Below are positions 16,951 to 42,289 of a stretch of DNA of 64,000 nt, one piece after another. The DNA comes from a virus. Its lineage: Duplodnaviria; Caudoviricetes. The stretch lies in IMG/VR virus record IMGVR_UViG_642791618_000001, positions 1-64,000 of that record, one strand, 5' to 3'. The translations under genes and the position numbers were made by a program. Under the pieces are notes generated by a model. The model did not search any database. It saw only the letters and a list, made by a program, of their open reading frames with translations, and had not been told where the DNA came from. The first letter of the stretch is position 1; each line of letters begins with the position of its first letter.

Positions 16951-16974
16951 CGAGACGACCAATCTTGCGAAAAG

Positions 16975-25784: not shown

Positions 25785-25810
25785 AGTCAGAGCCCAACTT
25801 TACACCTTTT
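25778..25810 (+). terminator. Probable intrinsic terminator closing the replication operon; left arm tandemly duplicated
   Basis: GGTGTAAAGT-9 nt-ACTTTACACC followed by TTTT. An extra GGTGTAAAGTC copy lies at 25767-25777. Confidence 0.5.
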
Positions 25811-26077
25811 GGAGGCTCGTTTTGGCCACGTTTCCGGCCAGATATATCCGGTATAAACGGCTCATCAAAAGCACTTTGTAATCGCGTTTTCAGTGCGTAG
25901 CAGGCCGATTTTGCGACGACAAAAAGTGGAAGGTTCAAAAACACTTCCTCATAGGATTTGAGTGATGGTCGCCTCACCCAAGTGCCAGAACGAACTCGGG
26001 AATAGATTTCCTCCTCACCGCAGTCGTAAACGGAAAATCGCCTCGCCGTCTGCTGAGTTTCCGCCAAAGTAGGGGAA

Positions 26078-27250
26078 ATGTCACAGGCGGATTCTATTGG
26101 AGCCTTAACACTCAACCTGCTGGGACGCAAGTTTCGGCAGGGGCGGCCACTATTTGCTCCCCCGGCTCAGTCGGTGCGCAGTTATGGGGCCGCGTACGCC
26201 GAAATCTGGTTCCCATCTGGGGGATGCCACTTCGACGCGAAGGGCGAATGCACAATGTGCAATTATGGGCGTTCGAGGAAGGTCAGCGCCGCGACGATGA
26301 TTGAGGCGGTACGGGCGGGACTCGCCAGTCTGCCAATAATCCCAAAAACTTTATGGGTGAGTGCGTTCAATGTCTTGGACGATCGCGAAGTCTCCCCGGA
26401 AGCGCGCCGCGGTATTTTTGCCGTGCTCGAAACTACGCCGGTGGAGCGTGTGTTGCTCGAGACGCATCCGTTGAGTGTAACCACAGAGAAGATCCAAGAA
26501 TTGCAGGCTTTAATTCCTGGAAAATCCCTCGGCATCGAACTTGGGATTGAAACGATGGCAGATTTCGCGCGCAAGTGGTGTATAAACAAGCAACTTACGA
26601 AACAAGAGATTCGGCACGCGATCGCGACCATCCAGGCGGCGGGCGCAATTCCCTATGTAAATCTTTTAATCGGCACGCCTTTCCTCTCGGCGGCCGAATG
26701 CCTCCGCGAGACTCGGGCTTCCATTGAGGCCCTGTTGGCGCTCGGCGTCCGCGACATCTGTCTTTTTCCCACCCATGTCAAAGAATTCACAGTCGTCGAG
26801 CAACTTGCCCGCCTCAACCTTTACCAACCACTTCCGCTGTGGGCACTGGTAGAGTTGCTCGTAAGCGTGCCTCCCGAGACCAGATGTAGTCTTTACTACG
26901 CTTGGGTGACCGATGTCGACCATCCCGGAAAGCCGGTCTCCATCCCCCCGCGCACAGGAGCCGAGGTCTACGCCGACGTCGTCTCTTTGCTTTATGCGTA
27001 CTTGGCGACGCGTGACGACGAGCAGATCGCGAGACTCGCTGCTTTACGAACGCCGTGCCGTGATGAGTTTTGCACCCGCCTCGCGCAGAAGCCCGCTTCG
27101 CCGCTGCCGCAACGCATTCTGGAAGGGGTCGAGGCACTTTGCGGAAGTGCCTTGCCTGGTCACTTCGAACGCTACAAGCAGGAAATCATTCAGGAAATTA
27201 CGAATGACTGGGAAATCGCGTGCCAAGAAACGCACCATCAACTATGTTAA
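26078..27250 (+). CDS. Radical SAM enzyme, RaSEA/TIGR01210-like (copy 1)
   Basis: CX7CX2C motif GCHFDAKGECTMCNY; IELGIET; LYQPLPLWALVELL. Confidence 0.8.
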   Translation: MSQADSIGALTLNLLGRKFRQGRPLFAPPAQSVRSYGAAYAEIWFPSGGCHFDAKGECTMCNYGRSRKVSAATMIEAVRAGLASLPIIPKTLWVSAFNVLDDREVSPEARRGIFAVLETTPVERVLLETHPLSVTTEKIQELQALIPGKSLGIELGIETMADFARKWCINKQLTKQEIRHAIATIQAAGAIPYVNLLIGTPFLSAAECLRETRASIEALLALGVRDICLFPTHVKEFTVVEQLARLNLYQPLPLWALVELLVSVPPETRCSLYYAWVTDVDHPGKPVSIPPRTGAEVYADVVSLLYAYLATRDDEQIARLAALRTPCRDEFCTRLAQKPASPLPQRILEGVEALCGSALPGHFERYKQEIIQEITNDWEIACQETHHQLC

Positions 27251-27690
27251 CAATGCGCTCAGCCGCCGAACACGAGGTTCCGACACTGCATCGGCTCGGT
27301 CTGTCGAGCTTTCAAAATCGGGATCGTTTCGATTGGGGTTGGACTGAGGAGTATTTGCAGTACCTGCTGAGCACTTCAAGCGGGTTCCTCCACGTGGCGG
27401 AGGTTGCCGGAGAACCGCAGATCGTTGGTTTGCATTGCGGTGTCTGGAACTACCCGGAATGCCGGGAGGACCAGTGCCGCTTTTATTGGCTGTACATCGA
27501 CAGCCGATTTCGCCGGCGCGGAATCGGAACACAGTTGATTCAGTATTCGCTAGCGCGCGCCGCAGAAAGAGGCAAGCGGAGCGCCATCGTGGGAATATGG
27601 GGTTCGGATGAGCCGGCGAGGCAGGTCGTTGAGCACCTCGGTTTTCAGCAAGTGGAAACGTTGAATCTGATGCGTCTCACGCTGGATTAA
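27244..27690 (+). CDS. GNAT N-acetyltransferase
   Basis: LYIDSRFRRRGIGTQL; A...Y..LGF-type end. Confidence 0.85.
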   Translation: MLTMRSAAEHEVPTLHRLGLSSFQNRDRFDWGWTEEYLQYLLSTSSGFLHVAEVAGEPQIVGLHCGVWNYPECREDQCRFYWLYIDSRFRRRGIGTQLIQYSLARAAERGKRSAIVGIWGSDEPARQVVEHLGFQQVETLNLMRLTLD

Positions 27691-27738
27691 ACGAGTTGGA
27701 GACAATAGGCTGCTTGTCTTCCACCAATCTTTTCCCAA

Positions 27739-28695
27739 GTGAGTTCTACATCCGGCCCATCCCCAATTTTGATCGCGGAAACCCCGCTGCACGCCGCGGA
27801 AAATTATCACCCGCCGGGAAACTTGTTTGTGAAGCTCGAGGGCGAGCAGCCTACGGGCAGCATCAAGCATCGTGCGGCAGTTTTCATGCTAGAAGCAACT
27901 CGCCGCGAACTGCAAGATGCCAAACTGGAGCTCATCGAGTCGACCTCTGGCAATCTCGGTGTTGCGCTCGGCTCGCTTGCACCTCATTACGGATACGAAC
28001 TTCTCTGCATTGTGGACCAGTTGATTCCGTCCTCGAAACTCGATAGGCTGCAGCGGGTCGCAAAAATTCAGAGTGTTCCGGCGACCGGTCATTCCGATGC
28101 GCGTGCCGCCCGTATTGCTTTGGCGGAGGAGCTAAGCCATCGCCCGGGCTATTTTTGGGTCAACCAGTATGCCAGCGAATCCAACCGGCGCGCGCATCTC
28201 GAATCGACCGGGCCAGAGCTCTCGCGTCAGGTCGGAGCTTCATTGAGGTGGCTCGTCTGTTCCATCGGCTCGGGCGGCACGGCCTGCGGTTTGGCCGCTT
28301 GGTTCGCTCGCCAGAATCCCGCCGTCTCCGTGGTTGCCGTGGAACCTTGGGGGTCCACCATTTTCGGAACGCACGCGGCACCTTACCTCTCCGTCGGAGC
28401 GGGCTTGCACGAACCGAGCGCCATCGTGAAGCGGTGGGGCAGTCCGCTGGCAGCTCATGCGCAGGTACCGGATTCTGCGGCCATCTCCGAGGTTAAGCGT
28501 TTCCAGGAACTCGAAGGAATCGCCCTTGGCATTACCTCCGGCGCTTGTCTAGCCATCGCCCGGCAGCTGGCCGCTTCGCACCCGGGGGACATGGTCGTCG
28601 CGCTCTCGGCCGATTACGGAACGGCTTATCGCGATATCATCGACGCCGGCCAAATCATCGACCGCTATCCCTTCCCCATAAACTCACTCAAATAG
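27739..28695 (+). CDS. PLP-dependent cysteine-synthase-family enzyme, SbnA-like
   Basis: KLEGEQPTGSIKHR (PLP Lys), IESTSGNLGVAL, WVNQY, IGSGGT. Confidence 0.85.
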   Translation: MSSTSGPSPILIAETPLHAAENYHPPGNLFVKLEGEQPTGSIKHRAAVFMLEATRRELQDAKLELIESTSGNLGVALGSLAPHYGYELLCIVDQLIPSSKLDRLQRVAKIQSVPATGHSDARAARIALAEELSHRPGYFWVNQYASESNRRAHLESTGPELSRQVGASLRWLVCSIGSGGTACGLAAWFARQNPAVSVVAVEPWGSTIFGTHAAPYLSVGAGLHEPSAIVKRWGSPLAAHAQVPDSAAISEVKRFQELEGIALGITSGACLAIARQLAASHPGDMVVALSADYGTAYRDIIDAGQIIDRYPFPINSLK

Positions 28696-30962
28696 TGCGC
28701 CCGCCGTCCACCGATCAACTTTCCGTCACGGGGGTACGACTTCACAACCTGAAGAGCGTTTCTGTCTCGATTCCACATTTTCGGCATACCGTCTGCACCG
28801 GTGTCTCGGGTTGCGGCAAGAGTTCCTTAGTTTTCGACTGCATTTACGCCCTGTGCGAATACGAGTTGCTGCAGTCGCTTTCCACATACGCTCGCGGCGC
28901 CATCCCACTGCCTGTCGTGCCGGACGTTGAGCACGCAAGCGGGTTGCTCCCACCGGTTGTAATCGATCAAGCGGACTTGGGACGAAACCCGCGGTCAACC
29001 ATCGGTACTTCTACGGAAGCCTACACGTTTCTACGGCTTCTTTTCGCCCGTGCCGCCGTGCCGGTGCTCGACGCCAGTGCGTTCTCCTTCAATTCTCCCG
29101 AAGGAGCGTGTCCGGCTTGCCGTGGGCTCGGCCAGATTTTGACGCCAGATCCGGAACGCCTTTTCGATCTCTCCAAATCGCTCGGCGAAGGCGCCATCCG
29201 ACACCGCGCGTGGAAGGTTGGAGGCCGGTACTGGAACATCATCAAAGCCACAGAGTTTTTTGAGATGGACGCTCCTCTCGGTCAGTGGCCCAAGGAAAAG
29301 CTCGATCACCTTATGCACGCGGCCCCGGCCGAAGTTGCCAACCGTGTGCCCGGATTCGTTCAACGGTTTACCTTTGAGGGGGTGGTTGAACGCCTCCGCG
29401 AGCGGCTCGCCGACGATCGCGGACTCGATTCGGCGGACTACGACGCGCAGTTCTTCACAACACAGTGGTGCGCGACCTGCGGGGGAACAAGGCTCCAGCA
29501 GAGGGCGCTGGCCTGCCGTCTGAATGGACTCAATATCGCCGATGCAGCGGGGCTTGCTGTTCCAGAACTGAAGAACTTCGTCCGCAGCCTGGAGATGAGC
29601 ACCCTCGCCACCGTCGTCGATTCGCTAAGTCGCATCCTGGAAAACCTGGAGATGGTGGAACTCAGTTACCTCACCTTGGATCGCCCTATTACCACCGTTT
29701 CCGGTGGCGAAATGCAGCGGATCAAGATTGCGCGGGAGCTGGGTTCCCGTTTGATGGGCATACTCTATATTCTCGATGAGCCTTCGAGGGGTCTTCACGC
29801 CAAGAACGTCGAGGCGGTGAATTCGATAATCACCAAACTCAAAGAGCGGGGGAATACGATCCTGAGTGTCGAGCACAACCGCGCGGTCGTGGAGTTGGCT
29901 GATAACATCGTCGAACTCGGTCCTGGCGCCGGCTCGCGGGGTGGCCAAATCACCGAGACGGGAACTCCAGCGGATTTCAAAAACAGCAGCGGGCCGACGG
30001 GCAGGCTCCTATCTGCGGCGAAGCAGCACATCTCACCGCCCCCGCCGAAAGCGTTTACTGAGTGGCACTTTTTTAGCGATTTGCGGCGCAATAACTTGAA
30101 GATTGAGAAACTCAAAATTCCGCGCGCGGCACTCACTTGCCTCGTGGGGGTTTCTGGCGCAGGAAAATCGTCACTCCTGGAGGAGATGCAGTTACGCGAT
30201 CCCGCTAGCGTGCGCGTGGCTCAGCGGCAGATCGGAGCGTCCGTGCGCTCGAACGTCTGCACCTATCTCAATTTTTTCGACGAAATTCGCAATCTGTTCG
30301 CCAAGAAAGCAAATGCGTCCGCAAGCCTTTTCGCGTTCAACAGTGACGGCGCTTGTCCCGAGTGCGGCGGACGCGGCAGCATCACTCTCGATCTCCACTT
30401 TCTGGGCAGCGCAATGGCACCCTGTCGCACCTGCAATGGAAAACGCTACCGGGCCGAAGTCCTTGGGTATACTTGGCAGGACCGCAACATCTCCGAAGTC
30501 TTGGAACTTCCTGTAGAGGAGGCCGCCACTTTTTTCCGGGAAGGGAAGAAAATCCGCAGCGCGCTGGAGTTGCTCTTGGGATGTGGCCTGGGCTATATCC
30601 GGCTTGGGCAGTCGCTGGACACCTTTTCCGGCGGCGAACTGCAAAGAGTGAAGTTGATTTATGGTCTGAACGATCCCACTGCTCTCTATCTGCTTGATGA
30701 GCCGTCGCGCGGGTTGCATCCGGACGACATCGAACGCATCGTCTCTTTGCTACGTACGCTCACTGCTCGCGGCAAGACCGTGGTTGCCTCGGAACACTCG
30801 TTGGATCTGGTTGCTCGCGCAGACTGGGTGGTGGAATTGGGACCCGGGGCAGCCAATGCCGGCGGGAAGGTGATCGCTGCTGGCACGGTTCGAGAGATCA
30901 TAAGAGCGACGACAAGCATCACCGCGCAATATCTTAAGTCCTATGTCAGACCTGGAACTTGA
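28695..30962 (+). CDS. Short UvrA paralogue (about 755 aa, DrrC/class II type)
   Basis: Two ABC modules (GVSGCGKSS and GVSGAGKSS; SGGEMQR and SGGELQR; LDEPSRGLH twice) with Zn-finger CxxC pairs. GTG start overlaps the previous TAG. Confidence 0.88.
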   Translation: MRPPSTDQLSVTGVRLHNLKSVSVSIPHFRHTVCTGVSGCGKSSLVFDCIYALCEYELLQSLSTYARGAIPLPVVPDVEHASGLLPPVVIDQADLGRNPRSTIGTSTEAYTFLRLLFARAAVPVLDASAFSFNSPEGACPACRGLGQILTPDPERLFDLSKSLGEGAIRHRAWKVGGRYWNIIKATEFFEMDAPLGQWPKEKLDHLMHAAPAEVANRVPGFVQRFTFEGVVERLRERLADDRGLDSADYDAQFFTTQWCATCGGTRLQQRALACRLNGLNIADAAGLAVPELKNFVRSLEMSTLATVVDSLSRILENLEMVELSYLTLDRPITTVSGGEMQRIKIARELGSRLMGILYILDEPSRGLHAKNVEAVNSIITKLKERGNTILSVEHNRAVVELADNIVELGPGAGSRGGQITETGTPADFKNSSGPTGRLLSAAKQHISPPPPKAFTEWHFFSDLRRNNLKIEKLKIPRAALTCLVGVSGAGKSSLLEEMQLRDPASVRVAQRQIGASVRSNVCTYLNFFDEIRNLFAKKANASASLFAFNSDGACPECGGRGSITLDLHFLGSAMAPCRTCNGKRYRAEVLGYTWQDRNISEVLELPVEEAATFFREGKKIRSALELLLGCGLGYIRLGQSLDTFSGGELQRVKLIYGLNDPTALYLLDEPSRGLHPDDIERIVSLLRTLTARGKTVVASEHSLDLVARADWVVELGPGAANAGGKVIAAGTVREIIRATTSITAQYLKSYVRPGT

Positions 30963-31755
30963 GGGCTCGCCGGCAGTGGCTCTGGCCGACTACGATTCGA
31001 TTGCGCGCGTGTACGATCTCTGGGCCTCTTGCGATCCAGCTTCCAAGCCGTGCTGGGATTTCTATCGCAGGGAAGTGACGCGTCATGGTGGAGTTTGCCT
31101 CGAAGTCGGCGTGGGAACCGGTGCTGTCATGCTTGGGGCGGGTCCTACCGTCGCTCACTATTACGGGATCGATCTTTCCCGCAGCATGCTCGCAGAACTG
31201 GAAACAAAACGGGCTAGCCTGCCTCCTCTCCCTTTCTCCTACACACTCATCCATGGCGACGTTCGACAAATCCGGCTGAGCGGCCCCCCGCCAACGCTAG
31301 CGATTGTTCCCTTTCGCACTGTGGGGCATTTTCTGACTGCAGACTCTAGGATAGCTCTGTTGCGCCACTTACGGGAAATCTGTGCGCCGGGAGCACGCTG
31401 CATCCTCGATCACTACAAGTTTAACCTGAAGTGGGCTCAGCAGCACGATCGCGTTACCCGATGGATGGGCGAGGGAACCATCAATGGCCAAACTTTCGTA
31501 CTCTCGGACACGTATGCTTATGATTTCGCGCGCCGCGAGATGGAATGTCTGCTCTGCGTGGAGGAGATCGCCAGGCATGGGACGGTGGTGAACAAGCGAT
31601 ACAGCGCGTTTCGTTTTTCGTGGCTCGAAGACGACGAAGTCTATCGCTACGCGGAAATAGCGGGGTGGCGGGTCGAGCAACGGTGGGGTGACTTTGAGTA
31701 TTCCGATTTCTCCGGCGACGCGAAAGACCAGGTCTGGCTCTTACGTGCGCCATGA
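30943..31755 (+). CDS. Class I SAM-dependent methyltransferase
   Basis: CLEVGVGTG, GIDLSRSML, GDVR. Confidence 0.88.
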   Translation: MSDLELEGSPAVALADYDSIARVYDLWASCDPASKPCWDFYRREVTRHGGVCLEVGVGTGAVMLGAGPTVAHYYGIDLSRSMLAELETKRASLPPLPFSYTLIHGDVRQIRLSGPPPTLAIVPFRTVGHFLTADSRIALLRHLREICAPGARCILDHYKFNLKWAQQHDRVTRWMGEGTINGQTFVLSDTYAYDFARREMECLLCVEEIARHGTVVNKRYSAFRFSWLEDDEVYRYAEIAGWRVEQRWGDFEYSDFSGDAKDQVWLLRAP

Positions 31756-32663
31756 GGCCGAACGATTGCTACTCGCTCGCCCGTACATCGGCCCGGAGTT
31801 CCACATTCCTGTCCCTGCTAGCGCATGCAACTGGCTTGCCTGGAGCAGCCGTTTGGACAGGATACCTGGCTTCGTTGAGTCTCGATCTGGATCTCCCTCG
31901 GCGCTGGCTTGCCTCCTGCGTGCCCTATCTCGATCTACTTTTACAGGCCATGGCCTACATGCCTTCCGGCGCGTCCGTTGGCGAGGTCGAGTCGGGGCAG
32001 ATCGATGATTTGGCCCGTGGCTTTTCGACCGGCGAACACCTCATTCTCGGTCCCTTGGACAGAAGTTCCTTGTGCGGACGACCGGCGCCTTTGCTATGGG
32101 AAGGCGCGCCAACTTTTGTGCAAATCATAGGGTGCGAAGAAAATACGGGCGCGATGATCCTTCGCCTACCGGGGACGCATTCGCTTTGCAGCTTGTCCGC
32201 AGAGGCATTGGTAGCGCCGCCGGGAATGCGGAGCGCGTGGTTTGCTGCCACCCCGCTTGGCCTACAGGCTTGCGAAGAGCACCTCCGACGCCTTCTGTCC
32301 TCCTGCCGTTTGGAGGTAGTTTGCCTTGCGGATCTGGCACGGTGGATGCGTGCGCTGTGCGAACGAATTGCCGGGTGTCCGCTAACCTCGACGGAAAGGC
32401 ATTGCCTTCGGGCTGCTCTTCGGGCTCTACAGGAGTGTCTGTGCGATGCTACTCTGTTTGCGCAGCGGCTCCAAAAGGTGGCGCAGTTTCTGCCGCCTGC
32501 CGAGCACGCATTCCTCATCGAACGGGCTGTATCAGCGATGCACCTGCTCGCACGCGCTCCGTCCGTCCTTGTAGGCTTCGACGTAAATCCAGCGTCCTGG
32601 CTGGAGGAGCTTGGGCGCGTGCTGGCGACGACGACGGTGGTGAGACTGGCACCCAAACAATAA
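31752..32663 (+). CDS. Hypothetical protein, probable degenerate BtrH-like/papain-fold paralogue of 38216-39151
   Basis: N-terminal NDCY and LILGPLDRSSL resemble YGCH and LVGPLDMGLL of the other gene. Confidence 0.45.
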   Translation: MRPNDCYSLARTSARSSTFLSLLAHATGLPGAAVWTGYLASLSLDLDLPRRWLASCVPYLDLLLQAMAYMPSGASVGEVESGQIDDLARGFSTGEHLILGPLDRSSLCGRPAPLLWEGAPTFVQIIGCEENTGAMILRLPGTHSLCSLSAEALVAPPGMRSAWFAATPLGLQACEEHLRRLLSSCRLEVVCLADLARWMRALCERIAGCPLTSTERHCLRAALRALQECLCDATLFAQRLQKVAQFLPPAEHAFLIERAVSAMHLLARAPSVLVGFDVNPASWLEELGRVLATTTVVRLAPKQ

Positions 32664-32664
32664 T

Positions 32665-33282
32665 ATGCCAATTTCCCATGCAAACGTCCTGTTCGGACTG
32701 GATTGCGCCAGCGCACCTGTGCGCGGTTCCGTTCCGGCCGAAAACCTGCTGTTGAAGCTCAATCCTGCGCTGCTTCCGGAAAGCGAACCTGCGGCCATAA
32801 TTATCGCTGCCGAGGCACCGATACTGTCCGATGCGACAATCTCCTACCAGACACTCGTGCATCTGCGGCAGCCCCGCGCTTCCTCACTTGTTTTTCTCAC
32901 GAGCGCCGGTGAAACGCTCGCGATGGCGCTCCTCGCTGCGAGCCTCACACTTGATGGTGCCGAAGCCGGTGCTTTTGTGCTGGCCTACATTCTTGAAAGC
33001 GTCTCCCCCGCTCCTGTCGGCGCGCGGGATTACGAGGCGTTCGCTTTCCTGATCCATCGGGTTCCCCCGCCGGACTGCGCCGTGTTGGTGGCGGAACTTA
33101 AGGAAGGCACGTCCAAGAGTTTCGCCCGTGAGGTTCTTTCCGCGGCGGCACTGCAGCGGATTGTCGAGCATGCCCGTGCGGCTCGGCCTCTCAGGCAAAC
33201 CACGCTGCTAATCGGTCGCGCTCCCGGGTTGGACGGGGAGCAAAAATGTCATTTGCTGCGCCTACATGAGAAAGAAATGTGA
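32665..33282 (+). CDS. Hypothetical protein, possibly a degenerate ketosynthase/thiolase-fold fragment
   Basis: Coupled ORF. SAGETLAMALL..SLTLDGAEAGA weakly recalls KS N-terminal-like proteins. Confidence 0.4.
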   Translation: MPISHANVLFGLDCASAPVRGSVPAENLLLKLNPALLPESEPAAIIIAAEAPILSDATISYQTLVHLRQPRASSLVFLTSAGETLAMALLAASLTLDGAEAGAFVLAYILESVSPAPVGARDYEAFAFLIHRVPPPDCAVLVAELKEGTSKSFAREVLSAAALQRIVEHARAARPLRQTTLLIGRAPGLDGEQKCHLLRLHEKEM

Positions 33283-34447
33283 AGCTTTCTGGCAACGATG
33301 GGCAGCCGAGCCGGGGAACTTGTCTGCCACGCTCGAAACGCCGAGGTATTTCTATTCGGGCGAACTGCTCACCCTCGCTTGGCACGCCCTGCACTCGAGT
33401 CTGCCCGCGGACGCGCAACTGCTGTACTCGCTGAAGGCCAACCCGCATCCGACGATCGTACGCTACTTTGCCGAGCACGGTGCGCTTTTCGATGTGGCCA
33501 GCCGTGGGGAAATGGAACTGCTCCTGGCGACCCAGGGCTCGCTGCAGCGGGCGGTATGGATCAGCCCGTGCAAAAGGGAAGCAGACTATCTCTGGGCGGT
33601 GCAACACGGCCTAGGCGCATCCGTGATCGATTCCAGAGAGGAAATAGGCACCGTGCGCCGGGTTGCGGCGACCCAGCCAGACACCATGCCCAGCTATCTG
33701 CTACGCGTTCAGCGACGCGCGGCTTCCGCGGGGACTTCCCTCTGGGCGGACTCGCAGTTCGGTGTCACTTTGGATGAGGCAATCGAGTTTACGCACACCC
33801 TGCGCCGGGACGGGATCCAGATCGCCGGGTTGCACGGCTATTTTGCCTCAAACCTTTTCGCCGAACAGGAGATTGCCCAAAATACCCAGGACTTGATGGC
33901 GCAGGCGCTCACCTGGCAGGCGTCTACTGGCACCTCGATGCGTGTCCTTGACGTCGGAGGAGGGTTTGGCTGGCCGCTTGGCGTTGAGGACGGCGAGCTT
34001 TCGTTACCGAGACTCCGGGACTGCCTAGCCCCCCTGGCCGCGGAGTTTTCCCCAGGCACTGCATTGTGGTTCGAATCGGGCCGTTTTCTCACCGCCGGCG
34101 CGGGTGTGCTCGTGCTCACCGTGATGAGCGTAAAAGAGCGCCCCGGCACGACCTCCGTCGTGCTAGACGGCGGAATGAATATCTTCGGCCTTCCCTCGAT
34201 GCGCCTGGGATTTCGTCCGCTGACGGTGATTCTTCTCGCGCGCGAGTGGGCTGGTCCCCTGCAGCCGCACACGCTTTTCGGCCCCTTGTGCACCCCGGGG
34301 GACAAATTTTGCGAGAAAGTGCTGCTGCCACCGCTTAAGGCCGGTGACCGCTTGGCTATTCTGCATGCGGGTGCTTACGGAGCCACGGCGGGGCGCTCTT
34401 CATTTCTCTCTTTCCCGGACGCGCACGAAACTGTACTTGCCGGTTGA
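33266..34447 (+). CDS. Fold-type III PLP decarboxylase (LysA/ODC/BtrK family)
   Basis: YSLKANPH, DVASRGE, DVGGGFG, FESGRFL, GPLCTPGD, AGAYG. Confidence 0.88.
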   Translation: MRKKCEAFWQRWAAEPGNLSATLETPRYFYSGELLTLAWHALHSSLPADAQLLYSLKANPHPTIVRYFAEHGALFDVASRGEMELLLATQGSLQRAVWISPCKREADYLWAVQHGLGASVIDSREEIGTVRRVAATQPDTMPSYLLRVQRRAASAGTSLWADSQFGVTLDEAIEFTHTLRRDGIQIAGLHGYFASNLFAEQEIAQNTQDLMAQALTWQASTGTSMRVLDVGGGFGWPLGVEDGELSLPRLRDCLAPLAAEFSPGTALWFESGRFLTAGAGVLVLTVMSVKERPGTTSVVLDGGMNIFGLPSMRLGFRPLTVILLAREWAGPLQPHTLFGPLCTPGDKFCEKVLLPPLKAGDRLAILHAGAYGATAGRSSFLSFPDAHETVLAG

Positions 34448-34456
34448 CCACATCCC

Positions 34457-34714
34457 ATGAACGAAGTCACCGAAATCGAAGAGTTGAAGCGGCTGCTTGC
34501 GCAACTTGCCCCAGGGAATCAACCCGCGATCCTCTCCCTTGCGCCCGAAGACAAGCTGCCGTTGGACTCGATGGGAATGGTTAGTTTTGCGGTCGCCTTA
34601 GAAGATTATTATGGGCTCAGATTCCGGCCCGATGTCCACGATCTCGTTTCAATTTTTTCCAACCTGCGGTCGCTTGACGAATTCATCGCTCGCGAACGCC
34701 AGGCCGCCACATGA
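34457..34714 (+). CDS. Acyl/aminoacyl carrier protein
   Basis: 85 aa, acidic, LPLDSMGMVSFAVALED phosphopantetheine Ser motif. Confidence 0.88.
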   Translation: MNEVTEIEELKRLLAQLAPGNQPAILSLAPEDKLPLDSMGMVSFAVALEDYYGLRFRPDVHDLVSIFSNLRSLDEFIARERQAAT

Positions 34715-35889
34715 GAGACACCAATCCTTTTCTCTCCGCGGTAATGCGGAAGGTGCGAAGCGGCCGTCCCCGGCTAGAGACCGCCGAACCTTTCTTCACG
34801 CGGGTCGAGCCGGTCCCCCGGGGAAACTACGTCGAGATTTGGTTCCTGACCTCGGGTTGCACTTGGGATGCCCGCGGCGGATGCACCATGTGCAATTATG
34901 GCGCCGGTCCTCAAAACATTGCGCCACTGTTCATGCAGCAAGCCGTGGAGCAGGCGCTCGCGGTGCTTCCAGTCGCTCCTGCCGAGCTCATGGTATCGCC
35001 GTCCGGTGGCATGCTGGATGACCGCGAAGTTCCGCCGAAAGCTCGCCAAGGAATTTACGCCGCGATGGCGAAGAGCACTGCCGATCTGCTGCTGATCGAG
35101 ACGCGCTCGGAGACGGCTACCGAGCGCCATCTCGACGAGTACCGCGCGACCTTTCCACACCGATCCCTAGCCATTGAGTTTGGGTTGGAATCGGCCTCTT
35201 CGTGGATCTCGACGTTCTGTGTGAATAAGGGCGCCGAGCCGGACCGCTTTGCCGCCGCCGCCGCCGCCGCACATCGGCGCGAGATCGGCGTCTATGCAAA
35301 CGTCTGTATCGGCACGGCCTTTCTCTCGGCGCGTGAGTCTGTTGAAGACGCGGTGCAGACCGCGCGGTGGGCCTTCGCGCACGGAGGCGAGCGGGTGGTC
35401 CTTTTCCCTCTGCACATCAAGCGATTCACACTTCTGGAGGTCTTGCACCATGCCGGCCTATATCCGCGCGTCTCTCTCTGGTCGCTGGTAGAATGCCTGC
35501 GCCGCTTGGGTTCGGAAAACAGTCACCGGGTCGAGATCGCGTGGTACAAATCGTACTACACGCAAAAATCGAAGATGACCTTCTCCCCTACGACCTGCGA
35601 CATCTGCCTGCCGACCGTCCTGACGCTCATGGACACCTATCGCCAAACGCAGGATTTCGCCGTTATCGAGAAGCTCGCAGCCTTTTCCTGCGCTTGCCAC
35701 GAGGAATGGAGAGCCGCCATCGAAGCGGAGCCTTCGTCGTCGCTGCCGGAACGCGTCCTGCGCTCGTACGAATTTCTAGACGATCACCTCGGCGTTGGTG
35801 CGCGTGATGAACTTGCGAGCGTTTCGCGTCGGCTTTTTGTAGAAGAACCCTTCACCTATGCTACTTGGAAGGCCCATGATCTCGCTTGA
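34711..35889 (+). CDS. Radical SAM enzyme, RaSEA/TIGR01210-like (copy 2)
   Basis: CX7CX2C motif GCTWDARGGCTMCNY; IEFGLES; LYPRVSLWSLVECL. Confidence 0.8.
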   Translation: MRDTNPFLSAVMRKVRSGRPRLETAEPFFTRVEPVPRGNYVEIWFLTSGCTWDARGGCTMCNYGAGPQNIAPLFMQQAVEQALAVLPVAPAELMVSPSGGMLDDREVPPKARQGIYAAMAKSTADLLLIETRSETATERHLDEYRATFPHRSLAIEFGLESASSWISTFCVNKGAEPDRFAAAAAAAHRREIGVYANVCIGTAFLSARESVEDAVQTARWAFAHGGERVVLFPLHIKRFTLLEVLHHAGLYPRVSLWSLVECLRRLGSENSHRVEIAWYKSYYTQKSKMTFSPTTCDICLPTVLTLMDTYRQTQDFAVIEKLAAFSCACHEEWRAAIEAEPSSSLPERVLRSYEFLDDHLGVGARDELASVSRRLFVEEPFTYATWKAHDLA

Positions 35890-36748
35890 AGTCGCGCAGA
35901 ATTTTCTCCGCCGGAACGTTCCTTCCGGCAGACCTATGCTTGTCTTCCTTTCCGGCGGAGTCGACTCCGATGTCGTGGCCCGTCTGGCTGTCGCCACCTT
36001 CGGCGCCGCGCGCGTCGTCGGCGCCACCTGCTTGCAAGCCGCGCAAGATCCCGCTCATCCAGAGAATGCCGCGCGGCTCGCCCGCACTTTGGGCATCGAA
36101 TACGCGCAATTGAACTTGGGGCAGATGCCAGCCGAACTCGCCGCCGAGCTGGCGCGGGCCTCTCCCCGATTCGACGATGGGGAAAACGGCTGGCTGATCG
36201 AGGCGAGAGCCAAGTGCGCTTTGCGAACCTCCATCGCCGCACTCTACCACGATCGGGGCTACTACATCTTAGGGTGTGGCAATCGCACAGAATTGCGCTT
36301 GGGGTTCTTCATGCCACTTGGGGACGGAATTTGCCACGCCGCCCCAATCCTGCACTTGTTCAAAACCGAGGTGTATGTCCTTGCCCAGGCATTGGGCACC
36401 GACTCCCAAGTGATCGAGCAACCGCCGTCTGCGGGTTTTTGGCCCGGTCAGTCGGACTTGGAGGATATCGCCTACTGGATGCTCCATGGTGGCCCCATCG
36501 TCCGGCCCGTGCATTTTTCGGAAGAAGATATCGCGGAGGTCGAACGGATGCGCCGCGTCCTGAGCTTTGCAGGGCTCGACGCGGCCCTTAAGGAATACGA
36601 GCGCGGCTCTGCTCCCGCCTTTGCGGCGTCCGTCTCAGGTCTGGAGCTCAAGATCGTGGAACGTGTTTACCGCGTCGCCGAGGCAGCGCGGGCGCTCAAG
36701 CTAATTCCCATGTGTGCGTCGCTTCTCTCGGAAGCTGCGCCGACATGA
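35876..36748 (+). CDS. NAD+ synthetase (NadE)-like ATP-dependent amidotransferase
   Basis: FLSGGVDS PP-loop, GNRTE, GDG, PILHLFKTEV, PPSAG. Canonical TKYGD reads MPLGD here. Confidence 0.82.
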   Translation: MISLEVAQNFLRRNVPSGRPMLVFLSGGVDSDVVARLAVATFGAARVVGATCLQAAQDPAHPENAARLARTLGIEYAQLNLGQMPAELAAELARASPRFDDGENGWLIEARAKCALRTSIAALYHDRGYYILGCGNRTELRLGFFMPLGDGICHAAPILHLFKTEVYVLAQALGTDSQVIEQPPSAGFWPGQSDLEDIAYWMLHGGPIVRPVHFSEEDIAEVERMRRVLSFAGLDAALKEYERGSAPAFAASVSGLELKIVERVYRVAEAARALKLIPMCASLLSEAAPT

Positions 36749-38241
36749 AGACGCTGGCGCTCCTTCTCCGAGCCGCGAGCGCTGACGCCGGATCCGCCGT
36801 AGCCCTGCTTTCGGACCGGCATCGGCTCTCTTATGCAGATACGTGGCGGCAAGTGGAGCAACTCGGTTGCGAGTTGCAGGCTGCGGGACTGACGCCTGGG
36901 AAGCGTGTAATCGCGATCACATCCCTGACCGTCGAGACTGTGCTCATGTTGGTCGCCATTTCGTGGACTGGCGCCATCATCATTCCGGCCGTCGCCTCGG
37001 GGCCTGGAGCCGATCTGAACGGCGTTAGGCAGTTCAGTCCTTGTCATTTGATCGGCACAGCCGAGCATCTCGAACCCTTCGATGTAGAGCTTTGTGCAGA
37101 ATTCAGGGTGGGTGAAAAGCGTTACTTCCTAGGCCGGTGGGAAGACGACCAAGATGGTGATGCACCGACCCGCGACGAAACCATCTTCCTCACCTCGGGC
37201 ACCACGGATGGCCCGCTGGGTGTGGTCTGTTCGCAAGCCCAAATCGCTTTCTGCCAAGCGGCAATCCAACAACGGCTCCGTTACGTTCCACAAGATCGCG
37301 TGTTGATCGGCGGCCCACTTTCATTCGATTACCACTACTATCAACTGCTGCTCGCCTTTGCCGCGCGCGCGACGTTAGTCGTCTGCGATCAGGTGCAAAA
37401 CCCCCTGGCAATGGCCGACCGAATTCTCCGGATGAAAGTCACCGTCCTGCCGTTGATCCCATACAGCTTCCGCCTGCTGCTAAAGTCGCGCATGCTGGAA
37501 AGGGGCGACTATTCCTGCGTGCGCCTGCTCTCTGCCACCGGAGAGGTGTGGCCCAAGCGCGAAATCGAACTCCTTGCGCAAGCGTTTCCCGCTGCCAGCG
37601 TATTTCCAATGTATGGGCTCACGGAGTGCAAGCGGGTCAGTATCCTCGATCAGCGGCTCAATCCGGAGTTACTCGGGGCGGTGGGCTTTCCGCTCACAGG
37701 GACACGAGTGCAGATTTTTGACCCCAACCACAGCGCATTGTCCACTGGCGACGTTGGCGAGATCGCCGTTGAAGGACCTCATTTGGCTGATGGGTACTTT
37801 CAGCGTCCCGAGGCCACATGCAGACGTTTTCATCAGCACCCGGATGGGAGACGCTTCCTGCTCACGGGCGACCAAGGCTACCTGGACGAGCGGGGCGCTC
37901 TTTGGTTCGTCGGGCGTGATACCCAACTGATCAAATACCGGGGCATTCGCACCTCCGCGGCGGCGATTGAAACCGCCTTCCTCCAGTGCCCGAATGTCCA
38001 GCGCGCCGTCGCGATGAATGTTCTCACGCGGTCCGGAGAAAAGGTCGCCGTGATGATCGAACTGGCCGATCAGAGCGCTGCCGGCGACACGAAGATCGCG
38101 GAGACTGTGCGAAGTCTGTGGCCCTTACACGGGCAGCCGGATTACTTTGAATTCGGCTTCATTCCTCTCCTTGCCAATGGCAAACCAGCCCGCGCCAAGG
38201 TTGCCACTTTACTCCATGAACGGTGCACCCGAATCGAATGA
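36745..38241 (+). CDS. AMP-binding adenylation enzyme (acyl-CoA/acyl-ACP ligase family)
   Basis: LTSGTTDGP, YGLTE, LTGDQG, GRDTQLIKYRG, PLLANGK. Confidence 0.88.
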   Translation: MKTLALLLRAASADAGSAVALLSDRHRLSYADTWRQVEQLGCELQAAGLTPGKRVIAITSLTVETVLMLVAISWTGAIIIPAVASGPGADLNGVRQFSPCHLIGTAEHLEPFDVELCAEFRVGEKRYFLGRWEDDQDGDAPTRDETIFLTSGTTDGPLGVVCSQAQIAFCQAAIQQRLRYVPQDRVLIGGPLSFDYHYYQLLLAFAARATLVVCDQVQNPLAMADRILRMKVTVLPLIPYSFRLLLKSRMLERGDYSCVRLLSATGEVWPKREIELLAQAFPAASVFPMYGLTECKRVSILDQRLNPELLGAVGFPLTGTRVQIFDPNHSALSTGDVGEIAVEGPHLADGYFQRPEATCRRFHQHPDGRRFLLTGDQGYLDERGALWFVGRDTQLIKYRGIRTSAAAIETAFLQCPNVQRAVAMNVLTRSGEKVAVMIELADQSAAGDTKIAETVRSLWPLHGQPDYFEFGFIPLLANGKPARAKVATLLHERCTRIE

Positions 38242-39151
38242 ACGGAACCCGTGGATCGAAGGAGCTCTGTCGCTCCGTCAACTCTCGTATGGATGCCACG
38301 TTCTGGCAGCCTTTCAGCTCATGCCGGAACTCGAGGAATTGCTGAGCGCTACCGAACTAGCCGGTCTTACGGGACTCTGTTTTGGTTTGTCTCACGTCGA
38401 CAGAGATCGCGCGCGTCAACTCGTTCCTAGTGTTTCTCCTCTTCCGGCATTGTCCAGCGCCTTGGGTGCCTTGGGAATTGCCTCGTCGCTGAAACACTGG
38501 GGCGAACAGGAGGGCGATGCCGCGTACCGCGATCTGGCCGTGCAGACCGAACGCCGTCCCACGTTGGTCGGTCCGTTGGATATGGGACTGCTTTTCCACA
38601 ATCCGTCGGCGCTGGTTTACCGTGGTCTTGATCACATGCTCGTCGCGCTCGAGGTGCACGAACACGAGATACTCGTAACCGACAGTGAAGGATTTCCCGC
38701 CGTCGTCATTCCACGGGAAGAATTCTTGACGGCGTGGCGGGCTATCTCCGTTCCTGAATCGCATCGCTCTTTCAATAGTCTATGCGTCGACAGAGTTTCG
38801 CCGTTTAGGGATGAGGAGCGTGAACGTGCGCACCTCCGGGAGGCGCTGCTTGCGCAGCGCCCTGCTTCCAGTGCGCACGTCGCGGCCATAATACAGCGGA
38901 TCAGCGCCAGCCAATCTGAGGACGAGGGCAGTGGATTGGAACTCAATCTGGCGGCTCTCTTGGAGAGAGCGTCATGCACGTTGCAGATTACCTATTATTT
39001 CTCCGACGGAGATTGGGCTACCATCTCTGAAGCTCTGCTCGAATTGGTCGCGACGCTCGGCGGCATTCTCGGCCCGCCGCTGGCTCCAGGGCGCCGCATG
39101 GCCGCCCTCAAGGGTGTGGCGCGCTATTTCGACCGCCTTTGCGCAGTATAA
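38216..39151 (+). CDS. Papain-fold protein, BtrH N-terminal-like (putative ACP-dependent acyltransferase); start uncertain
   Basis: Candidate triad Cys (YGCH), His (GLDHML), Asp (VTDSEG); GPLDMGLL motif. Confidence 0.55.
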   Translation: MNGAPESNERNPWIEGALSLRQLSYGCHVLAAFQLMPELEELLSATELAGLTGLCFGLSHVDRDRARQLVPSVSPLPALSSALGALGIASSLKHWGEQEGDAAYRDLAVQTERRPTLVGPLDMGLLFHNPSALVYRGLDHMLVALEVHEHEILVTDSEGFPAVVIPREEFLTAWRAISVPESHRSFNSLCVDRVSPFRDEERERAHLREALLAQRPASSAHVAAIIQRISASQSEDEGSGLELNLAALLERASCTLQITYYFSDGDWATISEALLELVATLGGILGPPLAPGRRMAALKGVARYFDRLCAV

Positions 39152-39154
39152 CCC

Positions 39155-40090
39155 ATGCAGATTATTGCGATCACCTACGCCTTGGGTTCAGAGCAAATTC
39201 CCGTTGAAAAGCTCGGACTTCAGGCCGCACTTCCTCCGGCGGCGATTGCTCAAATGCTGGACAATGGTTTGCAGACGGTTCCCGTTTGGCCTGGTGAAAA
39301 GCGCCCCCTGGCTTTGCAAAGCTTTATCGCCAGCTTTGGACGCGAACAATGCGAAGCGCTTCATTCCCTCAAGGCGGTGATCGTGGCCAAAACTCACTTG
39401 GGAGCGCACACGTTGCGAGCCGAGGATGCTCGCGATTGGTTTTCCAGCCGGGAGGGCCATCCGGCGCTCGCAATGGAGGTTACGGGCCAGCCCTGCGCCA
39501 TCCTGCACAGTGGCGTCGAACTCGCACGAAGGCTTCTTGCGCGATCGAATGGAGAAGAACCCAGCTGCGTCTTGCTGGTCGGTTGCGACGTTGCGGAAAA
39601 CGCTGCAGAGCGGTGCTATTTTGGAAGCGCCATGGGGGATGCCTGTGTAGCGATGCTATTGAGCATGCGGGCGGGAGGACCAGCCATACTGGGATCCCAC
39701 GTCGAAACGAACATTGTAGCGCCCCTCGGAGAGCAAAGCGATCCGAACGAGATTGCTCGATTCCGCCAGCATAATGTATTTTGGATTCGCGAGGCCATTT
39801 TCAGAGGGTTGGCGAAAGCGGATCGCTCGCTTGATACCCACTGCATCATACTTCCTCACACTCCAAACAGGCACATCGTCGAAGCCATCCGCCAGTCACT
39901 GGCTCTGCCGCACGACCGCATCATTTCGGAGTTCATGGCAACGACTGGTCATTGCTGCTCGAACGACTCATTCATCACCTTTGCCCGCCTCGTGGCCCAA
40001 GGTAGACTCCAGAAATACTCCACAGCAGTGCTTGTGAATGGCGGATTTGGTGGTACTCGTGGCGTGACGGTGATCGAGCCCTCATCATGA
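39155..40090 (+). CDS. KAS III/FabH-like condensing or acyl-transfer enzyme
   Basis: GQPCAILH (Cys), LPHTPN (His), TGHCCSND (His in place of the FabH Asn), NGGFG. Confidence 0.82.
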   Translation: MQIIAITYALGSEQIPVEKLGLQAALPPAAIAQMLDNGLQTVPVWPGEKRPLALQSFIASFGREQCEALHSLKAVIVAKTHLGAHTLRAEDARDWFSSREGHPALAMEVTGQPCAILHSGVELARRLLARSNGEEPSCVLLVGCDVAENAAERCYFGSAMGDACVAMLLSMRAGGPAILGSHVETNIVAPLGEQSDPNEIARFRQHNVFWIREAIFRGLAKADRSLDTHCIILPHTPNRHIVEAIRQSLALPHDRIISEFMATTGHCCSNDSFITFARLVAQGRLQKYSTAVLVNGGFGGTRGVTVIEPSS

Positions 40091-41028
40091 AGCTTCCGCT
40101 CAACATCCACCTCTACATCACCCCGTATTGCCCGGTGCCATGCCGGCACTGCTATTATGAGGCGTTGCGGCCCGGGGCACCTTACAGTGGACAGCTTTCG
40201 GCAGAGCAAATGGCCAGCGTGATTGTGGCGCTGGATACGGAATACGACATGGACGTTCATTTGGAGGGAGGGGAAGCATTCCTGAGCGACGACCTGGCCG
40301 AGCTTCTGGCACGCGTGCCGACGGACACATGGCAAAAGATCACCATCACAACCAGCGGCGCCCTAAAGCCGAAATTCGACGTCAAACTCCTGCGCTCGGT
40401 CGGAGATTTGCGCGTGTCGGTGGAAGGAATGAACGCCGAGCAGCATTTCACCTTACGAGGAATGCAGATCGATCGCACCGAGAGCTTCATGCTCGATCTC
40501 CAGCGCGATGGCGTTCGCTTTTCCATCCGCTCGACCCTGTTCACGGAGAACGTGCAGCATTGGATGGGGCTTGCTCAATACGCCCGTCAATTGGGAGCTG
40601 CCCAATTGTCCTGGTATGAACTCCAACCGGTGGGCCGCGCGAACCAAACGGCCGAGCATGGCTTCCTGACCCCGCAACAGATCGATAGTTTTTTGGCCTC
40701 GCTCAGTGCGCAGAGAAGTTCGGACCTTCCGCTCCTGTGTCGCTTTCAGTTTCCTGAGCGGCGCGTGGAAGCCGTCGGCCAACGAACACGCTCATTGAGC
40801 GCCTCGGGTTGGCACGTGCGAAGCCTGCCCGATATCCCTAGCCTCACGATCAACCCCAATGGAGATATCGGCGTCAGTCCCTGGAAGATTACTGCTCAAC
40901 ATGTAGGCGACCGGTTCGGAAACGTGAGGGACTCGGGATGGTTGGAAAAGGTCCGAAAAGCTTACGGGGAAGGCAATCTACATGACGCCTCGCCGAGCAC
41001 CTCTAGGCTTCGCATCAGTTCCGATTAA
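40087..41028 (+). CDS. Radical SAM enzyme (canonical CX3CX2C)
   Basis: ITPYCPVPCRHCYY, GGEAFL, ITTSG. Confidence 0.85.
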   Translation: MKLPLNIHLYITPYCPVPCRHCYYEALRPGAPYSGQLSAEQMASVIVALDTEYDMDVHLEGGEAFLSDDLAELLARVPTDTWQKITITTSGALKPKFDVKLLRSVGDLRVSVEGMNAEQHFTLRGMQIDRTESFMLDLQRDGVRFSIRSTLFTENVQHWMGLAQYARQLGAAQLSWYELQPVGRANQTAEHGFLTPQQIDSFLASLSAQRSSDLPLLCRFQFPERRVEAVGQRTRSLSASGWHVRSLPDIPSLTINPNGDIGVSPWKITAQHVGDRFGNVRDSGWLEKVRKAYGEGNLHDASPSTSRLRISSD

Positions 41029-41050
41029 GACCTGCGCAAACCAAGATGGC

Positions 41051-41539
41051 GTGAGCGGAAACAGTAAAATAGACATCCCGTTATTGAATCGGGTCACGTC
41101 CCCGGGTTCCGTCCGACTCGCCGACAGAGAGGAGGCAGACGTGTGTGTCGAATTCTTTGCTCGTCACCTCACTGAGGACAATGTTTTCTCTCGGGAATTC
41201 CTGTGTCCGATGGGAGTGAGAGCGGCAGTGACCCGCGGGCAAGTCATCGTTTGCAAGGTCGGTTTGGAAGTAATTGCGGCAGTCCGGTTTTACTGTCGCA
41301 AACGAACTGCCTGCGTTTCAATTTACCAATTTGCGGTGAACCCCACCTGGCGCGGCCATCGGCTTTCGCTAGAGATGATAAAGGCGGTGCCTCGGGGTTT
41401 GCGCATTTCATGTTGCTCGCCATCGTCCTCCTTAAATGAGTATTACGTCAAAACGGGGTGGACGTTGCGCCGCCGAAGCTGTCAGAAGAACGAGTGGACA
41501 TTGCCATGCAGCAGCGCAGAGCAATCACCACCCCTTTGA
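41051..41539 (+). CDS. GNAT-fold acetyltransferase
   Basis: IYQFAVNPTWRGHRLS; LNEYYVKTGW. Confidence 0.7.
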   Translation: MSGNSKIDIPLLNRVTSPGSVRLADREEADVCVEFFARHLTEDNVFSREFLCPMGVRAAVTRGQVIVCKVGLEVIAAVRFYCRKRTACVSIYQFAVNPTWRGHRLSLEMIKAVPRGLRISCCSPSSSLNEYYVKTGWTLRRRSCQKNEWTLPCSSAEQSPPL

Positions 41540-41656
41540 GTGGTTTCCAAAGCGCCGGGCTCCGCATGCGGGCGGACGAATCCGCGCGACCCTCTTTGGC
41601 GCGCAAACCTCGGAGTGACCCGCCGCGCCGAGATCGCGAGTTTCAGCTCGTTACCG

Positions 41657-42289
41657 CTAAAACAAGTGAATGCCGTGCTGGGTGCGTCCGTTGGTAAATT
41701 GCCGTGAATTATCTTTCCGCACCACCGGGCAGTAGACTTTGGTTAAAAACTTTGACTCATCTAATGCAGGCACCATTGAGCCAGCCCCTCCCCCTGCAAT
41801 CAAAGAGCCATATATTTCGAGCCAGTCTCCGCCTGAGTAGGCGAACTCAGTGCTCGGAAGCTGGTCGTGGAGCAACGTCTCTACAGAAGGCCGGATGTTC
41901 GCATACGGACCCTCCACTACAAGCTCCGCATATTGTCCTCCCTGCGTATATGTTAGTGCAAGCGCAGACTCGCGCCCCGCACCATCCTTGTCGAGAATCT
42001 CTCGCAGAGCAGAGAACGGGGATGCATTGTTCTGCAAGAACAGACACAACGAAAACGCGGTCAAGGCTGAGTGATCTCCCCTCCACTCGCCGCGCCATCT
42101 TGCGCCGTGTGTGATAAGTTGCCCCGGTGCCAATTCACAACCGAGGAGCGAAGTTCTTACGCCAGTCCTTTGCTCCCAATTCACAAAGGACGCATGAAGA
42201 TCTCTCATTTCAGAATCCGGCGACCGCCCGCTCGTAAAGTGGGTTGGGATTGACGCAATACGCAACGAGGGCAATTCTAGAATTTGCAT
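41657..42289 (-). CDS. GyrI-like small-molecule-binding domain protein
   Basis: GGQYAELVVEGPYANIRPSVETLL..LP, WLEIY, FLTKVYCPV. Confidence 0.7.
   Translation of the reverse strand: MQILELPSLRIASIPTHFTSGRSPDSEMRDLHASFVNWEQRTGVRTSLLGCELAPGQLITHGARWRGEWRGDHSALTAFSLCLFLQNNASPFSALREILDKDGAGRESALALTYTQGGQYAELVVEGPYANIRPSVETLLHDQLPSTEFAYSGGDWLEIYGSLIAGGGAGSMVPALDESKFLTKVYCPVVRKDNSRQFTNGRTQHGIHLF

Follow-up and report, generated by a model that had tools for sequence, protein, structure and literature searches.

What does a 16-kb block of biosynthesis-type genes do inside a prophage? The locus that raises this question lies in the window, the 64,000-nucleotide (nt) stretch analysed here (positions 1 to 64,000 of IMG/VR virus record IMGVR_UViG_642791618_000001), where 16 abutting or overlapping open reading frames (g01–g16) occupy positions 26078–41539 of the plus strand and a further gene, g17, converges on them. 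We favor the view, at a probability of roughly 55%, that these genes form an orphan biosynthetic gene cluster (BGC) that builds its product on a carrier protein independently of any nonribosomal peptide synthetase (NRPS) or polyketide synthase (PKS). The product would be a small molecule directed at DNA or nucleotides, and the pathway would travel, together with co-inherited self-protection, as cargo of the prophage. A first-pass annotation had counted 14 plus-strand genes and one convergent gene; the actual tally is 16 and one, g07 being the gene it overlooked. Its gene-family assignments, by contrast, agree with Pfam and NCBIfam. The features of the cluster are as follows.

25766–25812 (+): terminator-like hairpin with a U-run, 3′ of the last replication-operon gene and 5′ of g01
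26078–27250 (+): g01, RaSEA/queuine-lyase-like radical S-adenosylmethionine (SAM) enzyme 1 with a CX7CX2C motif (TIGR01210 2.9e-33, below cut-off; orthologues aligned)
27244–27690 (+): g02, GNAT acetyltransferase (PF00583 3e-12; start codon as called in a reassembly)
27769–28695 (+): g03, SbnA/CysK-like pyridoxal phosphate (PLP) beta-replacement enzyme (PALP 1.9e-47; TIGR03945 3e-53, below cut-off)
28695–30962 (+): g04, class II UvrA-like ABC ATPase without a UvrB-binding domain (UvrA model 6.7e-188, below cut-off)
30943–31755 (+): g05, SAM-dependent methyltransferase (profile match)
31752–32663 (+): g06, BtrH-like, paralogous to g13 but missing its catalytic Cys and His (hhalign 95%; synteny)
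32665–33282 (+): g07, candidate half-thiolase, Ketoacyl-synt_2/chain-length-factor (CLF)-like (structural template-modeling (TM) score 0.69 and feature score 0.87, a lead only)
33266–34447 (+): g08, fold-type III PLP decarboxylase, LysA/TIGR03099-like (Pfam and NCBIfam)
34457–34714 (+): g09, acyl carrier protein (ACP) with an LDS motif, Ser37 (NF006617 6e-7; PP-binding matches in orthologues)
34711–35889 (+): g10, RaSEA/queuine-lyase-like radical SAM enzyme 2 (TIGR01210 4e-42, below cut-off; queuine lyase 6p78 1e-10)
35858–36748 (+): g11, NadE-like PP-loop ATP pyrophosphatase (profile matches)
36712–38241 (+): g12, stand-alone amino-acid adenylation enzyme (profiles; FD..A4 Asp and NGK A10 Lys motifs)
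38147–39151 (+): g13, BtrH-type papain-fold transacylase, start codon uncertain (invariant Cys50/His163/Asp179; BtrH_N in the L003 orthologue)
39155–40090 (+): g14, ketoacyl-ACP synthase III (KAS III)-like thiolase (nearest solved structures DpsC, CerJ and FabH, all weak)
40087–41028 (+): g15, radical SAM enzyme with an SkfB/MoaA/viperin-like core and no SPASM cysteines (profiles; synteny)
40982–41539 (+): g16, GNAT-like, last conserved gene, start probably downstream (L008 orthologue with a weak PF00583 match, 51% identity)
41657–42289 (−): g17, probable GyrI-like small-molecule-binding protein, convergent (features 0.91, TM 0.63)

No NRPS or PKS, exporter or phosphopantetheinyl transferase (PPTase) was found within the cluster, as the first-pass annotation had said. 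The host genome (7.85 Mb, 62 contigs, 61% GC) carries two PPTase genes outside the cluster and would supply this activity. The hairpin (ΔG −27.7 kcal/mol, z −3.4; 0 of 200 shuffles folded equally well) stands between the replication operon of the phage and g01, which suggests that the cluster is a separate transcription unit. A scan for promoter and terminator consensus sequences returned fewer sites than in shuffled sequence and was thus uninformative. The cluster has a GC content of 58.8%, compared with about 62% in the remaining prophage, and no repeats flanking the cassette were found.

We compared the cluster with related loci and contigs (labeled L002–L016 and P0040). Relatives of g10 number about 158 among 5.8 billion protein clusters, and the same core occurs in Nocardia, in Lachnospiraceae/Clostridium, in a Bacteroidota-like genome, on an actinobacterial-type contig, on a termite-gut contig and on other metagenome contigs. 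Judged from these loci, the cluster family is rare, conserved and widely scattered, yet syntenic across phyla. The closest match in content is L008, a metagenome contig of 48% GC, which has all 16 plus-strand genes in the same order (32–67% identity) between unrelated flanks. For this reason the cassette is complete, as first supposed, and moves as a unit. The conserved unit is g01–g16, because no homologue of g17 was found in 10 related loci and the convergent gene of L008 is unrelated to it. At most, g17 is a possible member of the pathway. A GyrI-like fold is suggested by atlas features (0.91, 181 shared) and by TM scores of 0.62–0.64 to GyrI-like models, with no Pfam match to PF06445 at E 0.01. 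The proposal that it is a second resistance determinant finds no support in the related loci.

Around this core, the accessory genes vary by locus: an ATP-grasp enzyme and an MFS transporter in one; TetR, JmjC/cupin and desaturase genes in another; a NusG-like protein, a nitroreductase, a second adenylation enzyme and a GT2 protein in L016, from termite gut; and a copper amine oxidase, an enzyme resembling serine hydroxymethyltransferase and a hydrolase in a fourth. This variation resembles that of tailoring and export genes and favors a small-molecule pathway. In actinobacterial loci, the g12-type adenylation enzyme is fused to a BtrH-like domain, which ties loading and off-loading (g12 to g13) to the carrier protein. 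A search for longer proteins containing the second RaSEA-like domain returned one double-RaSEA protein only, and the equivalent search with the UvrA-like protein returned mostly double UvrAs and showed no fusion. A more distant relative, L014, lies on the Bacillus thuringiensis HD1002 plasmid NZ_CP009349.1 (305999–330961), where a RaSEA-like radical SAM gene and a gene for a QueC-like enzyme sit in a thiotemplated cluster. Its further genes encode two adenylating enzymes, two carrier proteins, a ketosynthase/CLF, FabZ, FabG, AsnB, a PPTase and ABC transporters. The presence of a RaSEA-like gene in so plainly thiotemplated a setting likewise favors a small-molecule pathway.

Which enzymes carry the proposed chemistry? 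The three radical SAM enzymes named in the first-pass annotation are g01, g10 and g15. Against the RaSEA model TIGR01210, g01 and g10 score 115 and 145 bits, both under the equivalog cut-off of 212. They nevertheless belong to the RaSEA/queuine-lyase superfamily, with C50/C58/C61 (CX7CX2C) invariant in 28 sequences, and g10 has four additional invariant cysteines. The closest solved structure to the g10-family profile is queuine lyase (6p78, 1e-10), followed by ELP3, a tRNA-modification enzyme. Queuine lyase uses radical chemistry to split the C–N bond in an amine adduct, and both it and RaSEA work on 7-deazaguanine (nucleobase) adducts. RaSEA also cleaves the C–N bond of its amine adduct in this way (PMC11298593). 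No partner of the ArcS or tRNA-guanine transglycosylase (TGT) type was found in the cluster or the prophage; two host TGT genes lie on other contigs. The description of g15 needed correction, as the C-terminal SPASM cysteines are absent from its translation. Its orthologues adjoin the g03 orthologue in other loci. Compared with SbnA, g03 reaches 181 bits on TIGR03945, short of the cut-off of 350, and no SbnB-like gene is present in the cluster.

The two proteins described as BtrH-like differ in kind. g13 is of BtrH type: PF14399 (BtrH_N) matches its orthologues in L003 and L002, and C50, H163 and D179 are invariant. g06 is homologous to g13 but falls outside this type, having lost the Cys and His. 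In other loci g06 adjoins the decarboxylase gene upstream, whereas g07 intervenes in the window and in L008. g07 has a homologue in L008 (3e-9) and is likely a partner of g14. In g14, the ACP_syn_III C-terminal domain alone matches (1.7e-11) and FabH models give about 20 bits, so that it is KAS III-like and not a member of KAS III proper. Both predicted GNATs hold, g02 directly and g16 through its L008 homologue. We also considered g13 as an aziridine synthase, and dropped this idea because the weak single-sequence match to AziU3/Azi29 (E 0.13–0.15) disappeared in a profile search.

Taken together, these families would allow the following pathway. g12 would charge the ACP g09 with a diaminopimelate-like amino acid, one that has a second amino-acid centre, and g08 would strip the distal carboxylate to free a primary amine, comparable to BtrK in butirosin biosynthesis. 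g14 and the CLF-like g07 would then condense or transfer an acyl unit, and g13 with its inactive paralogue g06 would hand the ACP-bound chain over to an amine. g11 may adenylate a carboxylate or carbonyl and couple it to the carrier-bound amine exposed by g08, after which g01 and g10 may cut the alkyl–N (C–N) bond so that an amide or amidine nitrogen remains. We propose this joining and cleavage because the g10 profile lies nearest queuine lyase, and RaSEA and queuine lyase are C–N lyases. The adjacent pair g15 and g03 could make a non-proteinogenic, beta-substituted amino acid, while g05, g02 and g16 could tailor the product. Finally, g04 would shield the DNA of the producer, as DrrC and Ecm16 do, and for a lysogen the compound would be a means of competition or superinfection exclusion.

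The prediction that the product acts on DNA comes from g04. As first described, this is a short UvrA: a stretch of about 147 residues, corresponding to the UvrB-binding domain of the host UvrA, is missing, which gives g04 a class II architecture. Invariant in the UvrA-like copies of the family are the Walker A and signature motifs, two of each, and 8 zinc cysteines, and the UvrA DNA-binding domain is matched. Every related locus with enough flank has the UvrA-like gene, except L016, where the operon runs past the 21-kb stretch. In a tree that also included the UvrAs of the host and, from a Nocardia genome, four further class II UvrAs, and in which DrrC and Ecm16 were not placed, the cluster-family copies formed one clade (support 95/93) to the exclusion of these other UvrAs, with a branching that mirrors the g10 identities. 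The host itself has a canonical UvrA on contig C62 and a double-length one (about 1840 amino acids) at G000:C46:86639-91327. DrrC and Ecm16 are class II UvrA self-resistance proteins (PMC9328131, PMC10192343, PMC10413001), and by analogy g04 fits a co-inherited self-resistance protein of this type. From a class II UvrA-like clade inherited with the cluster we therefore predict a product able to bind or damage DNA.

How firmly is the cluster tied to a prophage? On its left is a phage helicase/primase module, and to its right follow the ligase, terminase, portal and capsid genes:

19448–23319 (+): replication module (SF2 helicase, primase), upstream and on the same strand as the cluster
49505–50386 (−): prophage ligase, in the downstream arm (full length, 2.8e-54)
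54670–55926 (+): large terminase
57106–58548 (+): portal
59968–60861 (+): major capsid protein

Genes of the AAA_24, DUF2800 and DUF669 families lie further left, from about 17144, and the downstream arm also holds AAA+ proteins. An integrase gene stands beside tRNA-Glu about 15 kb beyond the window (about 77.7–79.1 kb in window numbering). Tail genes are barely recognizable, and no att repeat was found around tRNA-Glu. Replication, packaging and head genes with a tRNA-adjoining integrase confirm that the cluster is cargo of a prophage of about 60 kb, its left end not fixed, at tRNA-Glu in a soil bacterium; the location proposed by the first-pass annotation is thus correct. The possibility that the cluster had been joined to phage sequence in assembly, which that annotation named as a way to be wrong, is unlikely, because the same run, reassembled independently (Logan), gives one 96-kb contig of even depth that spans both cluster junctions.

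Such a location is exceptional for the family, which was not found in phage collections or among 60 host relatives. The second RaSEA-like protein (g10), searched singly and as a profile against IMG/VR (2.9 million viral contigs), had no relative there; tblastn against GenBank phages (50,697 records) found none; and neither the cluster nor the window arms had a megablast match among GenBank phages. Soil metagenome contigs at 90–99% identity cover most of 24.0–25.8 kb and leave the cluster uncovered, although they give no evidence of its absence because they are short and none bridges it.

Several other features of the prophage were noted. The Logan reassembly has one base fewer at each of 42475, 42482 and 42525, so that indel errors may affect 42.4–42.7 kb, a segment of short open reading frames at whose end a ligase-like fragment begins (42725–43348, −; weak, partial match to phrog_114, 5.5e-6). 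With the full-length gene listed above, the prophage has two ATP-dependent DNA-ligase-like genes. Two pairs of direct repeats about 900 nt apart and 80–90% identical (42438–42482/43336–43380 and 42550–42569/43451–43470) lie just past the right end of the cluster, upstream of genes that run leftward, and could be regulatory or duplicated gene starts. A gene for a DUF6573 protein (43556–44299, −; 5e-26) lies in the same arm. At 51724–52770 (−), a weak match to a TET-associated glycosyltransferase (PF20691, 4e-6, just under cut-off) coincides with one to a phage hydroxymethylcytosine glucosyltransferase PHROG (8.6e-12); through this gene the prophage may possess a separate DNA-glycosylation function. 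Left of the replication genes, 12909–16962 (−) encodes a response regulator, a histidine kinase and an SMC/AAA_23-like ATPase, which belong to the host or to the element. A Pfam scan of ten further open reading frames of the window gave no additional assignment.

Several observations weigh against a DNA-directed small molecule. No product is in hand, and neither an exporter nor a regulator lies within the cluster of the window; moreover, every chemical step above is read from family membership. The nearest radical SAM relatives with known chemistry act on 7-deazaguanine adducts, and the next, ELP3, on tRNA. In Clostridial assemblies one open frame of 1522 amino acids joins the UvrA-like protein to two RaSEA-like radical SAM domains (UvrA–radical SAM–radical SAM), with both CX7-8CX2C motifs intact; elsewhere the separate UvrA-like and RaSEA-like reading frames share 11 nt (L009) or 4 nt (P0040 locus). 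Such fusion and overlap would be odd for a mere resistance protein. The literature offered no characterized cluster or paper with this gene set, in line with the initial impression of an unrecognized pathway, and no antiSMASH/MIBiG comparison stands behind this statement. Nothing relevant was found that links RaSEA to BGCs, combines BtrH, radical SAM and UvrA, or describes an amidine or archaeosine synthase, and in a paper on uvrA-guided genome mining neither "radical SAM" nor "Nocardia" occurs.

The fusion and the gene overlaps would suit a different role for g04, in which it directs a radical SAM machine to DNA as one of its subunits. UvrA-recruited, RaSEA-like C–N lyases would install, trim or remove a nucleobase group, so that an amine group built on the ACP and placed on DNA, or on a DNA-bound intermediate, is trimmed by C–N cleavage; the outcome would be a new kind of DNA hypermodification or direct adduct reversal in a temperate phage. 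In a variant, the enzymes would reverse adducts directly, like spore photoproduct lyase. Within the prophage, such a system would mark or protect phage DNA. We consider this main rival unlikely, but the Clostridial fusion and the relationship of the radical SAM enzymes to proteins acting on 7-deazaguanine keep it alive. The fused frame is conserved at 90% amino-acid identity between two assemblies, although the contigs that bear it are 88.6% identical and so count as one lineage. Inheritance of the UvrA-like protein with the cluster as a clade, and the position of the cluster, which immediately follows the phage replication genes and is read in their direction, would also suit a DNA-modifying system, as would a reduced relative beside BREX genes and STAND nucleoside triphosphatases (NTPases), described below. 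However, the terminator-like hairpin sets the cluster apart from replication-operon transcription, the TGT and QueC genes are elsewhere in the host genome, and no transglycosylase, base-flipping transferase, nuclease or helicase is conserved as a partner. The prophage has no DNA transglycosylase, which supports the small-molecule reading, and the metabolite-type neighborhoods of other loci and the absence of the family from 2.9 million viral contigs and 50,697 phage records also count against a phage DNA modification. The first-pass annotation had left the choice between a DNA-reactive metabolite and an ACP-delivered nucleic-acid modification; the link to DNA itself stands, in the stable tie to the UvrA-like clade, but the two alternatives are inseparable in silico.

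Could the product instead have nothing to do with DNA? It might be a modified amino acid or a polyamine-like or cofactor-like compound, with the UvrA-like ATPase as a chaperone or scaffold or in some other role. No known DNA-reactive warhead enzyme was recognized among the cluster proteins, the GyrI-like gene is not conserved, and the termite-gut locus has no UvrA-like gene within 21 kb. In contrast, the UvrA-like proteins keep their 8 zinc-finger cysteines, both ATPase sites and the DNA-binding-domain match, and they are class II proteins like DrrC and Ecm16 (PMC9328131, PMC10192343) that have been retained across phyla. We therefore regard a product unrelated to DNA as quite improbable.

A last possibility is an ecological version of the favored explanation, in which the cluster is an inducible module for chemical anti-phage defense or superinfection exclusion and defense is the selected function. 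The first-pass annotation had raised defense and had asked whether homologous clusters lie in defense islands or prophages. One relative of g10 does: L015 (1–21815) encodes a RaSEA–nitroreductase fusion, a decarboxylase, a QueC-like/DUF7411 protein, an aminotransferase and two NB-ARC/TPR NTPases, with the BREX genes BrxL, PglZ and Eco57I-like and a KAP NTPase as neighbors, and may be a reduced, defense-island version of the cluster chemistry. In a PADLOC search, g04 matched mad3/mad8 through generic OLD/ABC-ATPase similarity (MAD3 is an OLD-type ATPase; PMC13662399), g15 matched pVip weakly, and no multi-component system was matched. Cargo at a variable prophage position that was not found in 60 host relatives, the weak resemblance of g15 to prokaryotic viperins and the single, indirect hint of L015 speak for selection as defense, but this is very doubtful, since most family members sit in ordinary chromosomal, BGC-like settings and the PADLOC matches reduce to generic ABC-ATPase and radical SAM similarity.

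A small molecule directed at DNA, made by a mobile cluster that carries its own protection, thus remains our preferred explanation. If it is true, complex chemistry can pass from host to host by way of phages. With its combination of two to three RaSEA/queuine-lyase-like radical SAM enzymes, a PP-loop enzyme, a carrier protein and a UvrA-like protein that co-evolves with the cluster, the family would offer new enzymology, such as radical C–N lyases outside tRNA and queuine metabolism, and would probably yield a new DNA-directed compound. Should the UvrA-guided alternative be true, the cluster would represent a new principle of DNA modification or repair. The Clostridial fusion protein gives biochemistry a direct handle.

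Among known systems, the module of butirosin biosynthesis that makes 4-amino-2-hydroxybutyrate (BtrI ACP, BtrJ, BtrK, BtrH) is alike in its ACP-tethered amino acid, PLP-dependent decarboxylation on the carrier and BtrH-type acyl transfer to an amine. The cluster differs in loading by an adenylation enzyme, where butirosin uses an ATP-grasp enzyme, and in lacking aminoglycoside genes and BtrG; it adds three radical SAM enzymes, a PP-loop enzyme, an SbnA-like enzyme, a KAS III/CLF pair and a UvrA-like protein. Clusters of the closthioamide type, known for the GyrI-like CtaZ, presumably likewise combine a carrier protein, an AMP-ligase, a papain-like transacylase, a PLP decarboxylase and a PP-loop enzyme with a GyrI-like neighbor and no megasynthase. 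Compared with what we take to be their gene set, the window has no ATP-grasp enzyme or chorismate lyase, adds three radical SAM enzymes and a UvrA-like protein, and has a GyrI-like gene that is not conserved in the family. ArcS–RaSEA and queuine lyase are the nearest relatives of g01 and g10 and share the CX7CX2C motif and radical C–N cleavage of an amine adduct, whereas the cluster proteins score below cut-off, have no ArcS or TGT partner, occur in a bacterial setting with an ACP and a PP-loop enzyme, and number two to three paralogues per cluster. g04 resembles DrrC and Ecm16 in its length (about 750 amino acids), in its lack of a UvrB-binding domain, in its retained ATPase sites and zinc modules and in its place within a biosynthetic operon; it differs in forming its own clade, in being fused to or overlapping with a radical SAM gene in some lineages, and in belonging to a cluster that is neither PKS nor NRPS. 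Finally, like sublancin on SPbeta, this is a case of a temperate phage giving its lysogen a biosynthetic cluster. Because no characterized match was found and a survey reports that nearly all known phage BGCs are bacteriocins (bioRxiv 10.1101/2020.10.01.322628), both the pathway family and its carriage on a prophage appear to be new, the cargo in this case being a predicted 16-enzyme, non-ribosomal pathway.

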